In this document: in pieces, positions 42,073 through 61,757 of the stretch | Layout of the letters: the number at the start of each line of letters is the position of its first letter | Numbering within the stretch: position 1 is the first letter of the stretch | Translations under genes and position numbers: made by a program | DNA from: Escherichia coli | Lineage (GTDB): Bacteria; Pseudomonadota; Gammaproteobacteria; Enterobacterales; Enterobacteriaceae | NCBI RefSeq assembly: GCF_022846255.1 | Contig: NZ_AP025682.1 | Direction: 5' to 3' (one strand) | DNA length: 64,000 nt | The notes under the pieces: model-generated | What the model was told of the DNA's origin: nothing | Seen by the model: only the letters and a program-made list of their open reading frames with translations | Database searches by the model: none

Positions 42073-42173
42073 TGCCGGATGCGGCTAAAACGCCTTATCC
42101 GGCCTACAAATTCTACCAAATTCAATATATTGCAGAAATCATGTAGGCCTGATAAGCGTAGCGCATCAGGCAA
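42073..42173. repeat. Pair of REP elements between ysaA and avtA
   Basis: tgccggatgcggctaaaacgccttatccggcctaca and the inverted copy tgtaggcctgataagcgtagcgcatcaggcaa. Confidence 0.85.
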
Positions 42174-58653: not shown

Positions 58654-60723
58654 ATGTCTGAGAAAACTTTTCTGGTGGAAATCGGCACTGAAGAGCTGCC
58701 ACCAAAAGCACTGCGCAGCCTGGCTGAGTCCTTTGCTGCGAACTTTACTGCGGAGCTGGATAACGCTGGCCTCGCACACGGCACCGTTCAATGGTTTGCT
58801 GCTCCGCGTCGTCTGGCGCTTAAAGTAGCTAACCTGGCGGAAGCGCAACCGGATCGTGAAATCGAAAAACGCGGCCCGGCGATTGCCCAGGCGTTCGACG
58901 CTGAAGGCAAACCGAGCAAAGCGGCAGAAGGCTGGGCGCGTGGTTGCGGTATTACCGTTGACCAGGCTGAGCGTCTGACTACCGATAAAGGCGAATGGCT
59001 GCTGTATCGCGCCCACGTGAAGGGCGAAAGCACTGAAGCACTGCTGCCGAATATGGTTGCGACTTCGCTGGCGAAACTGCCGATCCCGAAACTGATGCGT
59101 TGGGGTGCAAGCGACGTGCACTTCGTGCGTCCGGTGCACACCGTGACCCTGCTGCTGGGCGACAAAGTTATTCCGGCTACCATTCTGGGCATTCAGTCCG
59201 ATCGCGTGATTCGCGGCCACCGCTTTATGGGCGAGCCGGAATTCACTATCGACAATGCTGATCAGTATCCGGAAATTCTGCGTGAGCGCGGGAACGTCAT
59301 CGCCGATTACGAAGAACGTAAGGCGAAGATTAAAGCCGATGCCGAAGAAGCAGCACGTAAGATTGGCGGTAACGCTGACTTAAGCGAAAGCCTGCTGGAA
59401 GAAGTGGCTTCGCTGGTGGAGTGGCCGGTCGTTCTGACCGCAAAATTCGAAGAGAAATTCCTCGCGGTGCCGGCTGAAGCGCTGGTTTACACCATGAAAG
59501 GTGACCAGAAATACTTCCCGGTGTATGCGAACGACGGCAAACTGCTGCCGAACTTTATCTTCGTTGCCAACATCGAATCGAAAGATCCGCAGCAGATTAT
59601 CTCCGGTAACGAGAAAGTCGTTCGTCCGCGTCTGGCGGATGCCGAGTTCTTCTTCAACACCGACCGTAAAAAACGTCTGGAAGATAACCTGCCGCGCCTG
59701 CAAACCGTGTTGTTTCAGCAACAGCTGGGTACACTGCGCGACAAAACTGACCGCATTCAGGCGCTGGCTGGCTGGATTGCTGAACAGATTGGCGCTGACG
59801 TTAACCACGCAACCCGTGCGGGCCTGCTGTCCAAGTGCGACCTGATGACCAACATGGTCTTCGAGTTCACCGACACCCAGGGCGTTATGGGGATGCACTA
59901 CGCGCGTCACGATGGCGAAGCGGAAGATGTGGCAGTGGCGCTGAACGAGCAGTATCAGCCGCGCTTTGCCGGTGATGACCTGCCGTCTAACCCGGTAGCC
60001 TGTGCGCTGGCGATTGCTGACAAGATGGATACTCTGGCGGGTATCTTCGGTATCGGCCAGCATCCGAAAGGCGACAAAGACCCGTTTGCGTTGCGTCGTG
60101 CCGCACTTGGCGTGCTGCGTATTATCGTTGAGAAGAACCTCAATCTTGACCTGCAAACCCTGACCGAAGAAGCAGTGCGTCTGTATGGCGATAAGCTGAC
60201 TAATGCCAACGTGGTTGATGATGTTATCGACTTTATGCTCGGTCGCTTCCGCGCCTGGTATCAGGACGAAGGTTACACCGTTGATACCATCCAGGCGGTA
60301 CTGGCGCGTCGTCCGACTCGTCCGGCTGATTTCGATGCCCGTATGAAAGCGGTATCGCACTTCCGTACCCTGGAAGCAGCTGCAGCACTGGCGGCGGCGA
60401 ACAAGCGTGTATCTAACATTCTGGCGAAATCTGACGAAGTGCTGAGCGACCGCGTGAATGCCTCTACTCTGAAAGAGCCGGAAGAAATTAAACTGGCGAT
60501 GCAGGTTGTGGTGCTACGTGACAAGCTAGAGCCGTACTTTGCTGAAGGTCGTTACCAGGATGCGCTGGTCGAACTGGCTGAGCTGCGTGAACCGGTTGAT
60601 GCCTTCTTCGATAAAGTGATGGTCATGGTTGATGACAAAGAATTGCGAATCAACCGTCTTACCATGCTGGAGAAACTGCGCGAATTATTCCTGCGAGTTG
60701 CGGATATTTCGCTGTTGCAGTAA
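58654..60723 (+). CDS. glyS: Glycine--tRNA ligase beta subunit (689 aa)
   Basis: [100 protein letters not shown]... Confidence 0.97.
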
Positions 60724-60736
60724 TAACGTCGTTATT

Positions 60737-60767
60737 AAAAAGCCTGCCATCTGGCAGGCTTTTTTAT
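60737..60767 (+). terminator. Rho-independent terminator of glyQS
   Basis: aaaaagcctgccatctggcaggcttttttat: GC stem agcctgcca / tggcaggct followed by a T run. Confidence 0.8.
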
Positions 60768-61044
60768 CGCTAAATAATAGAGCAACCTTTAATAATCTTC
60801 TGCTGAATAAAGATTGTCTCATATATTAATTTTATGAGATTTTTTTAGGATTATATCAAGGAGAAGAAACGAACTTATTAAGCTAGAATAGCCACGGGTG
60901 CTTGAGACTGTTTGTCTCAGGTATTCACCGAAAGGCAGACAGAGAAAAGCCCCACCTGACTATAAATCAAAGTGAGGCCCCTCTATGCATAGACACCATA
61001 AGGTTAGCCTCTTACTCGTTGGAAATCAACACAGGGGGCTGGGA

Positions 61045-61197
61045 ATGCCGCAGAAATATAGATTACTTTCTTTAATAGTGATTTGTTTCACGCTTTTATT
61101 TTTCACCTGGATGATAAGAGATTCACTGTGTGAATTGCATATTAAACAGGAGAGTTATGAGCTGGCGGCGTTTTTAGCCTGCAAATTGAAAGAGTAA
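61045..61197 (+). CDS. hokA: Hok-family type I toxin HokA (50 aa)
   Basis: MPQKYRLLSLIVICFTLLFFTWMIRDSLCELHIKQESYELAAFLACKLKE: single transmembrane helix plus conserved C-terminal region typical of Hok/Gef peptides; located between glyS and cspA. Confidence 0.85.
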   Translation: MPQKYRLLSLIVICFTLLFFTWMIRDSLCELHIKQESYELAAFLACKLKE

Positions 61198-61203
61198 GCG
61201 TCT

Positions 61204-61231
61204 TCGGCGGGAAATTATTCCCGCCTTTCTT
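61204..61231 (+). terminator. 3' terminal hairpin of the hokA transcript
   Basis: ggcgggaaattattcccgcc followed by tttctt. Confidence 0.6.
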
Positions 61232-61330
61232 ACGGTGTTGCGCATTCTCATTGCACCCAAATTTATTCTTCACAAAAATAATAATAGATTTTATTACGTG
61301 ATCGATTATTTATTTCCTGAAAAACAAATA

Positions 61331-61361
61331 AAAAAATCCCCGCCAAATGGCAGGGATCTTA
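61331..61361 (-). terminator. Rho-independent terminator of cspA
   Basis: On the reverse strand: atccctgcc attt ggcggggat followed by a 7-T run. Confidence 0.75.
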
Positions 61362-61384
61362 GATTCTGTGCTTTTAAGCAGAGA

Positions 61385-61597
61385 TTACAGGCTGGTTACG
61401 TTACCAGCTGCCGGGCCTTTAGCGCCGCTTTCGATGGTGAAGGACACTTTCTGACCTTCGTCCAGAGATTTGTAACCATCGTTCTGGATAGCAGAGAAGT
61501 GTACGAACACGTCTTTAGAGCCATCGTCAGGAGTGATGAAGCCGAAGCCTTTGTCAGCGTTGAACCATTTTACGATACCAGTCATTTTACCGGACAT
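61385..61597 (-). CDS. cspA: Major cold-shock protein CspA (70 aa)
   Basis: [70 protein letters not shown] (RNP1 and RNP2 motifs). Confidence 0.98.
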
Positions 61598-61757
61598 AGT
61601 GTATTACCTTTAATAATTAAGTGTGCCTTTCGGCGATATGGCGTGCTTTACAGATTTTGAAGCGTTAAAGGAATGTGCACTACGAGGGGTATCAACGATA
61701 ACTCTTGAAGGGACTTGCCTTACTACACTGCTTTAATGGTCTGTACGTCAAACCGTT
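61598..61757 (-). promoter_or_regulatory. Long cspA 5' UTR (about 160 nt) with cold-box element near its 5' end
   Basis: Reverse-strand leader begins ACGGTTTGACGTACAGAC...; cold-box motif TGACGTACAGA at about 61740-61750; a CTTAAT -10-like hexamer lies just upstream (about 61764-61769). Confidence 0.75.

Follow-up and report, generated by a model that had tools for sequence, protein, structure and literature searches.

Does the Escherichia coli chromosome analysed here encode a complete hokA toxin-antitoxin cassette, or one that is disrupted in the manner of K-12? We addressed this question in a 64,000-nt stretch of contig NZ_AP025682.1 (hereafter the window), in which the segment at 60.7-61.4 kb has the order glyS (58654-60723, plus strand), a spacer and cspA (61385-61597, minus strand). 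The spacer contains hokA and is free of IS150, so that the leader between glyS and hokA is uninterrupted, as the original prediction had stated. Judged from the sequence, the predicted folds and the comparison with related loci, this is very probably an IS-free chromosomal hokA/mokA/sokA type I toxin-antitoxin cassette of E. coli, built like the hok/sok system of plasmid R1. The locus and its regulatory architecture, like the absence of the IS from hokA in strains other than K-12, have been known since 1999 and are routinely annotated. The present analysis contributes a precise element map, the placement of fbi and of the likely mRNA end beyond the earlier coordinates, and population numbers. 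The old question is what role the chromosomal hok/sok loci play; IS-free strains are already plentiful, and the window sequence alone therefore makes that role no more testable.

The assignment of the gene at 61045-61197 (plus strand) to hokA was borne out by its product, a 50-aa Hok/Gef membrane toxin identical to the HokA of K-12, and by matches to both Pfam and Rfam. The peptide scored 76.2 bits against the Pfam family PF01848 (HOK_GEF; cut-off 22, E = 1.4e-21), with residues 5-46 aligned to positions 1-42 of the 42 in the profile, and contains the N-terminal hydrophobic segment LLSLIVICFTLLFFTWMI. The cysteines Cys14, Cys29 and Cys46, at positions whose importance is stated in PMC12214031, are all encoded in the DNA. 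For hokC, hokD and hokE, A-to-I editing has been reported to recode position 46, and many hokA-like peptides outside the glyS-linked group (L028-L055, from Enterobacter, Rahnella, Edaphovirga and others) have Tyr46 in the motif LAYE, as opposed to Cys46 in HokA. The leader at 60896-61047 (plus strand) matched the full length (1-157) of the Rfam model RF01794 with 120.2 bits (gathering score 59, E = 3e-28), compared to a lower score of 87.2 bits for the R1-like plasmid locus. Although named 'sok', this model stops at the hok AUG and therefore describes the hok mRNA leader. In other genomes, RefSeq annotates hokA at the corresponding place. The distance of 320 bp given in the original prediction is right if counted from the glyS stop codon, which the hokA ATG follows by 322 nt, and wrong for the glyS terminator from which it had been counted, since the terminator hairpin lies only about 280 nt upstream.

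We placed the elements of the hokA mRNA (all on the plus strand) using the R1-like locus, the annotated K-12 sokC and the R1 elements as described in PMC9841398. The putative hokA promoter has a -10 hexamer TAGAAT at 60884-60889, read from the sequence, 6 nt upstream of the 5' end defined by Rfam, and every glyS-linked orthologue has TAGAAT or TAGAGT equally far from GGGTGC. No -35 hexamer was recognisable for this promoter, which is why the consensus promoter scan of the window made no call. As the hokA and sokA promoters both fall below the thresholds of the scan, they were placed by homology and conservation. A block at 60826-60856, 40-70 nt upstream of the mRNA start, is also conserved; it has a promoter-like look, is common to the glyS-linked orthologues, is partly recognisable upstream of R1 hok, and reads TTAATT...TTTTTAGGATTAT in the window and TTGATnnnnnGAAATATTTTAGGAATA in relatives.

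The predicted hokA mRNA comprises, as its minimal full-length unit from tac to fbi, positions 60896-61258, delimited by the start of the RF01794 match and by the fold, and the conservation of the unit among E. coli alleles stops at about 61267. At its 5' end lies tac (GGGTGCTTGAGA, 60896-60907), whose predicted partner is fbi in the full-length RNA and ucb once the 3' end has been trimmed. A 5' hairpin (TTGAGAC/GTCTCAG, 60902-60920) competes with these tac pairings and is the counterpart of the metastable hairpin of R1. The anti-Shine-Dalgarno element ucb (AAGCCCCAC, 60947-60955) is predicted to pair with 60972-60978, a stretch that includes the mok Shine-Dalgarno sequence, as long as the RNA is full-length, and with tac after trimming. 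The mokA Shine-Dalgarno sequence GAGG (60974-60977) precedes the ATG at 60985 by 7 nt, a spacing equal to that in the R1-like locus, and its predicted partner in the trimmed fold is dcb (GCCTC, 61007-61011). The hokA Shine-Dalgarno sequence AGGGGG (61033-61038) is located 6 nt before the hokA ATG.

The 50-aa peptide with a 3' hairpin that was originally proposed is accounted for by the list of open reading frames and by a terminator-like site in the scan. The latter is a GC-rich hairpin, GGCGGGAA-ATTA-TTCCCGCC, followed by TTTCTT (61206-61225); it is kept in the 28 related loci and has the position of the R1 hairpin GGCGGGCGCAGGCCCGCC. This hairpin would be expected to protect the 3' end of the mRNA once it has been processed to the active form. 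The end of the locus had been set at 61231, but the functional unit reaches at least 61258, since fbi (TCTCATTGCACCC) occupies 61246-61258; all folds that contain fbi show it paired with tac (6 + 5 bp). No clear terminator was found after fbi in E. coli, where there is just a weak GGUGU...GCACC hairpin with a degenerate U-tract; in the orthologues a U-run follows GCACCC directly, joined in some by a strong hairpin farther downstream. Beyond fbi, the window has as its next hairpin the cspA terminator (61333-61360), which in the plus-strand reading has a mismatch and no U-tract. In some E. coli genomes (L007 and L008) an extra gene of 372 nt, annotated as yidD-like, lies between fbi and the cspA terminator and replaces an AT-rich stretch at about 61268-61330. 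On the minus strand, a 23-codon frame (MRNTVRKAGIISRRRRLLFQFAG, 61174-61245) is antisense to the 3' end of hokA and to the GC-rich hairpin; it is ysaE in the K-12 annotation and a hypothetical protein in other genomes.

Folding of the long and the trimmed RNA predicted two alternative structures. In the minimum free energy (MFE) fold of 60896-61232, tac paired with ucb and the mok Shine-Dalgarno sequence with dcb; in the MFE folds of RNAs extending past 61258, tac paired with fbi, and ucb with the mok Shine-Dalgarno sequence. The region of the hok Shine-Dalgarno sequence and ATG (61034-61048) was paired with 61168-61182 in both folds, which fits the need for translation of mok to open the site. 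For the full-length hokA RNA, the predicted MFE was -137 kcal/mol, with z = -8.24 relative to shuffled sequences. The two predicted folds correspond to the R1 switch as described in PMC9841398, in which the full-length mRNA is inert and the truncated one is active and accessible to Sok.

Applied to the window, the model would run as follows; its first steps, up to the burial of the hokA site, are supported by the sequence, the predicted folds and the comparison with relatives. Transcription from a weak promoter (-10 TAGAAT) would begin at about 60896 and yield an mRNA with extensive structure. As long as this RNA is full-length, tac at its 5' end would be paired with fbi at its 3' end and ucb would then sequester the mokA ribosome-binding site, so that this RNA should be neither translatable nor accessible to Sok. 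On shortening to the hairpin at 61206-61225, tac would re-pair with ucb, and the mok Shine-Dalgarno sequence with dcb, while the hokA ribosome-binding site would be buried in a long stem in both forms. If hokA follows R1, 3' exonucleolytic trimming would yield this shorter, active form presenting the mok start region, and a ribosome on mokA would have to open the stem over the hokA site, providing translational coupling. By the same model, a SokA of about 56 nt transcribed from TTGATT-17-TAACCT would pair across the mokA Shine-Dalgarno sequence and start and should trigger decay by RNase III; a drop in SokA would allow HokA to be made and the inner membrane to be depolarised. For hokA, we infer the 3' processing, the RNase III cleavage and the membrane damage from the R1 literature.

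The antisense RNA had been expected at roughly 60900-61000; alignment with the annotated 59-nt sokC of K-12 places the predicted sokA instead at 60994-60939 on the minus strand, which gives an RNA of about 56 nt whose 3' end falls where the sokA pseudogene remnant of K-12 also ends. It is predicted to begin with a short unpaired 5' stretch, followed by a single long hairpin and a UUUUCUCUGU tail, with an MFE of -24.7 kcal/mol and z = -4.99. The candidate promoter on the same strand consists of a -10 hexamer TAACCT (61001-61006), aligned with the TATCCT of R1 Sok in the block GTAAGAGGCTAxCCT, and a -35 hexamer TTGATT (61024-61029), placed by homology at a spacing of 17 nt and with its TTG present in all 28 related loci. 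The -10 hexamer matches the consensus at three of six positions and is under the threshold of the consensus scan; the skeleton TTG...TAnnnT is kept in all 28 loci. The original prediction had proposed an alignment that might reveal disrupted regulatory boxes or a missing sok promoter; every regulatory box and a sok-type promoter were found to be present, and the proposal of an intact locus therefore stands. All regulatory parts of the R1 hok/sok model could be mapped in the window, which supports structural intactness; the suggestion that the window allele of hokA may also be functional draws on structure alone and was put too strongly.

The upstream in-frame ATG at 60985, which the original prediction had set apart from the classic arrangement, is real. 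It opens a 70-codon mokA frame (60985-61197, plus strand; taken from the list of open reading frames), of which the 50 residues of HokA starting at the ATG at 61045 are the last 50, and the K-12 mokA pseudogene likewise has the stop of hokA. The reading frames of mok and hok differ in R1. The way in which Mok residues are numbered in PMC9841398 is consistent with this, and the window does differ from R1 in this respect, but its arrangement is standard for chromosomal loci. In the K-12 annotation, mokA and mokC share their stop coordinates with hokA and hokC, and a 70-aa in-frame mok frame is kept in 10 of the 11 glyS-linked orthologues. Going by these sequences, an in-frame mokA start is the normal chromosomal arrangement; mok is also in frame in an R1-like plasmid variant (L005), with ATGs at 444 and 501. 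The in-frame state is not essential. In the IS-free E. coli Ecol_244 (L010), a 1-nt deletion at 61044 has created a 29-codon out-of-frame mokA and left hokA intact, and mok is out of frame in the glyS-linked locus of Phytobacter and in the distant loci of Rahnella, Edaphovirga and Rouxiella. Ecol_244 also carries the change G61253A in fbi, and in E. coli GE3 (L012), which is IS-free too, the hokA stop codon TAA has become TTA and the gene is annotated as a pseudogene. Six substitutions within 14 bp at 60979-60992 split two E. coli haplotypes of the mokA start (MHRHH... versus MPEHH...); the same segment is the 5' recognition tail of SokA, and the remaining leader is nearly invariant.

To place the locus in a broader context, we scanned one genome per species and obtained 41 hokA-like loci. 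The gene is located directly downstream of glyS in Escherichia, Pseudocitrobacter, Klebsiella oxytoca/michiganensis, Kluyvera, Citrobacter sedlakii and Phytobacter, and the hokA-like loci of Enterobacter, Rahnella and others are not linked to glyS. The comparison set consisted of 28 non-identical hokA-like loci from about 12 genera, in which the 5' GGGTGC was invariant and the 3' GCACCC almost invariant. A tac-fbi duplex was present in 28 of the 28 loci, with energies from -13 to -30 kcal/mol and with compensatory changes in the distal half, where GAGAC/TCTC is replaced, for example, by GAGGC/GCCTC, TTAAGGC/GCCTTA, GAAAC/GTTTC or CTCTGGAT/ATCCATGAG. With -19.1 kcal/mol, the window duplex is among the weaker ones of the family. 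The energy gap between cognate and non-cognate duplexes was small (-22.6 versus -20.3 kcal/mol), because GGGUGC/GCACCC is invariant.

RNAalifold recovered the tac-fbi, 5' hairpin and SD-dcb pairings from the alignment, and 12 of 37 pairs had changed on both sides. The 5' hairpin (columns 7-13 with 20-26) had both-sided changes at five of its seven pairs, and the SD-dcb pairing (columns 104-108 with 143-147) showed compensation from G-C to A-U in five sequences. A single RNAalifold consensus cannot display both tac pairings, and it loses the distal half of tac-fbi because the register shifts by one column between clades; the tac-fbi duplexes were therefore computed for each sequence separately. 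These patterns argue for selection acting on the RNA switch within this clade, and the window copy has the complete switch.

To quantify how often the locus is interrupted, we searched 5426 complete E. coli genomes. An uninterrupted locus, defined as the 701-bp query found unbroken in one place, was present in 2831 of these (52%), the K-12-type IS150 junction in 1663 (31%) and a second IS150 junction in up to 1115 (at most 21%), the last count being an upper bound that includes overlapping matches, since the three classes sum to more than 5426. IS150-bearing leader alleles make up about 48% of the complete genomes, and the IS-free arrangement is the commonest state, not the exception. An IS-free hokA has been reported earlier for E. 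coli C and NRG857c.

The interrupted alleles are of two forms. As the original prediction had stated, IS150 lies between glyS and hokA in K-12: the MG1655 annotation has hokA, a mokA pseudogene and a 1443-bp IS150 with a 35-nt sokA pseudogene on its far side (b4455, b4647 and b4614 for hokA, mokA and sokA). The HokA peptide, the flanks and the in-frame mokA are as in the window, whereas K-12 and B strains (L002/L004) have lost the 39 bp at window positions 60974-61012 and show no target-site duplication. The lost segment holds the Shine-Dalgarno sequence and ATG of mokA, the 5' part of SokA and the sokA -10 hexamer; insertion and loss leave the coding part of hokA detached from its promoter, tac and ucb, and the sokA promoter broken in two. 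In the second allele (L003/L007), IS150 is in the opposite orientation, with a duplication of AAG at 60970-60972, two bases before the mokA Shine-Dalgarno sequence. This form is found at the identical site in two different flanking haplotypes. The IS150 forms could stem from a hot spot, from recombination or from derivation of one from the other.

We compared the window with the closest known systems. The order of elements is that of R1 hok/mok/sok (parB), namely tac, 5' hairpin, ucb, Sok target, mok Shine-Dalgarno sequence, dcb with the Sok promoter, hok Shine-Dalgarno sequence, hok, GC hairpin and fbi, and the two loci share the block GTAAGAGGCTAxCCT and the alternative tac-fbi and tac-ucb pairings. 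They differ in the frame of mok relative to hok, in the Sok -10 hexamer (TATCCT in R1, TAACCT in the window) and in a separate terminator hairpin just after fbi, which R1 has and hokA lacks. R1 is plasmid-borne with proven post-segregational killing, and the R1 Hok and HokA peptides are only distantly similar. The K-12 hokC (gef)/mokC/sokC locus is chromosomal and has an in-frame mok like hokA, with a mokC of 210 nt and a hokC of 153 nt that end at a common stop, and its sokC antisense RNA has the size, shape and GGGGCUUUUCUCU tail of SokA. However, hokC occupies another chromosomal site, with IS186 nearby, and according to PMC12214031 the Cys at position 46 of HokC is coded by RNA editing, whereas Cys46 of HokA is in the DNA.

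The IS-free hokA of E. coli C, the allele studied in 1999, was located at 346202-346354 in genome NZ_CP020543.1. Like the window copy, it lies between glyS and cspA and has the same architecture, with tac, ucb, the mok Shine-Dalgarno sequence, dcb, the sokA promoter hexamers, the hok Shine-Dalgarno sequence and fbi all identical to those of the window. The two alleles differ at 15 of 371 transcribed positions (96% identity), none of them in a regulatory box. Six of the 15 differences fall at 60979-60992, in the mokA start and the SokA 5' tail; there are also four coding changes (HokA ...KQGSYELAAFLACNLKE, versus ...KQESYELAAFLACKLKE in the window and K-12) and a 1-nt deletion at 61241 relative to the window.

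How should these observations be explained? Against the very probable reading as a complete R1-like cassette stand the negative results reported for the hokA of E. coli C, the three-of-six match of the sokA -10 hexamer, the missing -35 of hokA, the lack of a clear terminator after fbi and the weakness of the tac-fbi duplex. Natural alleles without the hokA stop codon or with a shifted mok frame, and the IS150 insertions in about half of the complete genomes, are compatible with weak selection. That the locus is a chance open reading frame and hairpin in an intergenic spacer, with no gene at all, has a negligible probability: the small size of the frame and nothing else speaks for it, against Pfam and Rfam matches with E values of 1.4e-21 and 3e-28, a fold with z = -8.24 and orthologues in many genera, and it is refuted by the Rfam, Pfam and orthologue searches. 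A more specific suggestion is that the true product is a 70-aa, N-terminally extended HokA made from 60985, with one regulated start site and no separate leader peptide. This would account for the 70-codon frame in the window and in 10 of the 11 glyS-linked orthologues, which come from several genera, and for the in-frame annotation of mokA and mokC in K-12. We nevertheless consider it improbable, because all relatives have a conserved Shine-Dalgarno sequence (GGAGG/GGGGG) and ATG before the 50-aa frame, the Pfam domain spans just residues 25-66 of the long form, the extended frame is broken in Ecol_244 and Phytobacter with hokA left intact, and mok is out of frame in Rahnella, Edaphovirga and Rouxiella. 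Moreover, the 60-nt extension shares nucleotides with the sokA promoter, dcb and the hok Shine-Dalgarno sequence, so that its conservation can be explained at the nucleotide level.

More difficult to set aside is the idea that hokA is a silent relic, that is, a cassette that is intact and maybe transcribed, is never activated in its host and persists by inertia, with neutral IS150 insertions. Pedersen & Gerdes (1999) found neither post-segregational killing nor activation by rifampicin for the IS-free hokA of E. coli C, according to the 2026 preprint bioRxiv 10.1101/2025.08.07.668861 (the 1999 results are cited here second-hand, through this preprint, PMC7232551, PMC12214031 and PMC3562002), and the regulatory boxes of that allele are identical to those of the window. 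Both promoters are weak, degenerate alleles occur in nature, as in GE3 with its lost stop codon and Ecol_244 with its 1-nt deletion, and IS150 has entered the leader in nearly half of the complete genomes. Yet plasmid-stabilisation and rifampicin assays probe just one kind of function, and the K-12 peptide, identical to that of the window, is toxic on overexpression according to the same preprint. The locus has also been found downstream of glyS in at least six genera with all RNA elements retained, and the compensatory changes in tac-fbi, the 5' hairpin and SD-dcb point to purifying selection on the RNA switch rather than to drift. On balance we regard a silent relic as a serious possibility that falls somewhat short of probable.

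A further reading, put forward tentatively and still on the unlikely side, is that hokA is no decaying relic but a module under long-term purifying selection, present downstream of glyS since before the six glyS-linked lineages diverged, with a switch kept by compensatory substitutions and an IS-free allele that would be conditionally active in nature. If long-term selection on hokA is real, the repeated inactivation of the locus by IS150 in E. coli may be due to a real cost that an active toxin imposes, rather than to neutral decay; the insertions fall into two junction types, one of them in two flanking haplotypes, and both types together occur in about 48% of the complete genomes.

A few other features of the window were recorded in passing. 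Sub-threshold Rfam matches at the glyS and cspA terminators (STnc370, rnk and the Thr, Trp and Phe leaders) were rejected as terminator look-alikes. The cspA mRNA thermoregulator at 61330-61757 (minus strand) matched RF01766 over its full length with 501 bits, and the gene at 61385-61597 is named cspE by RefSeq in many genomes and cspA in others, under one protein accession. At 42108-42150 (plus strand), there was a match to the sRNA ES036 (CssrF) with a score of 38.9 bits, compared to a gathering score of 37.6 bits.
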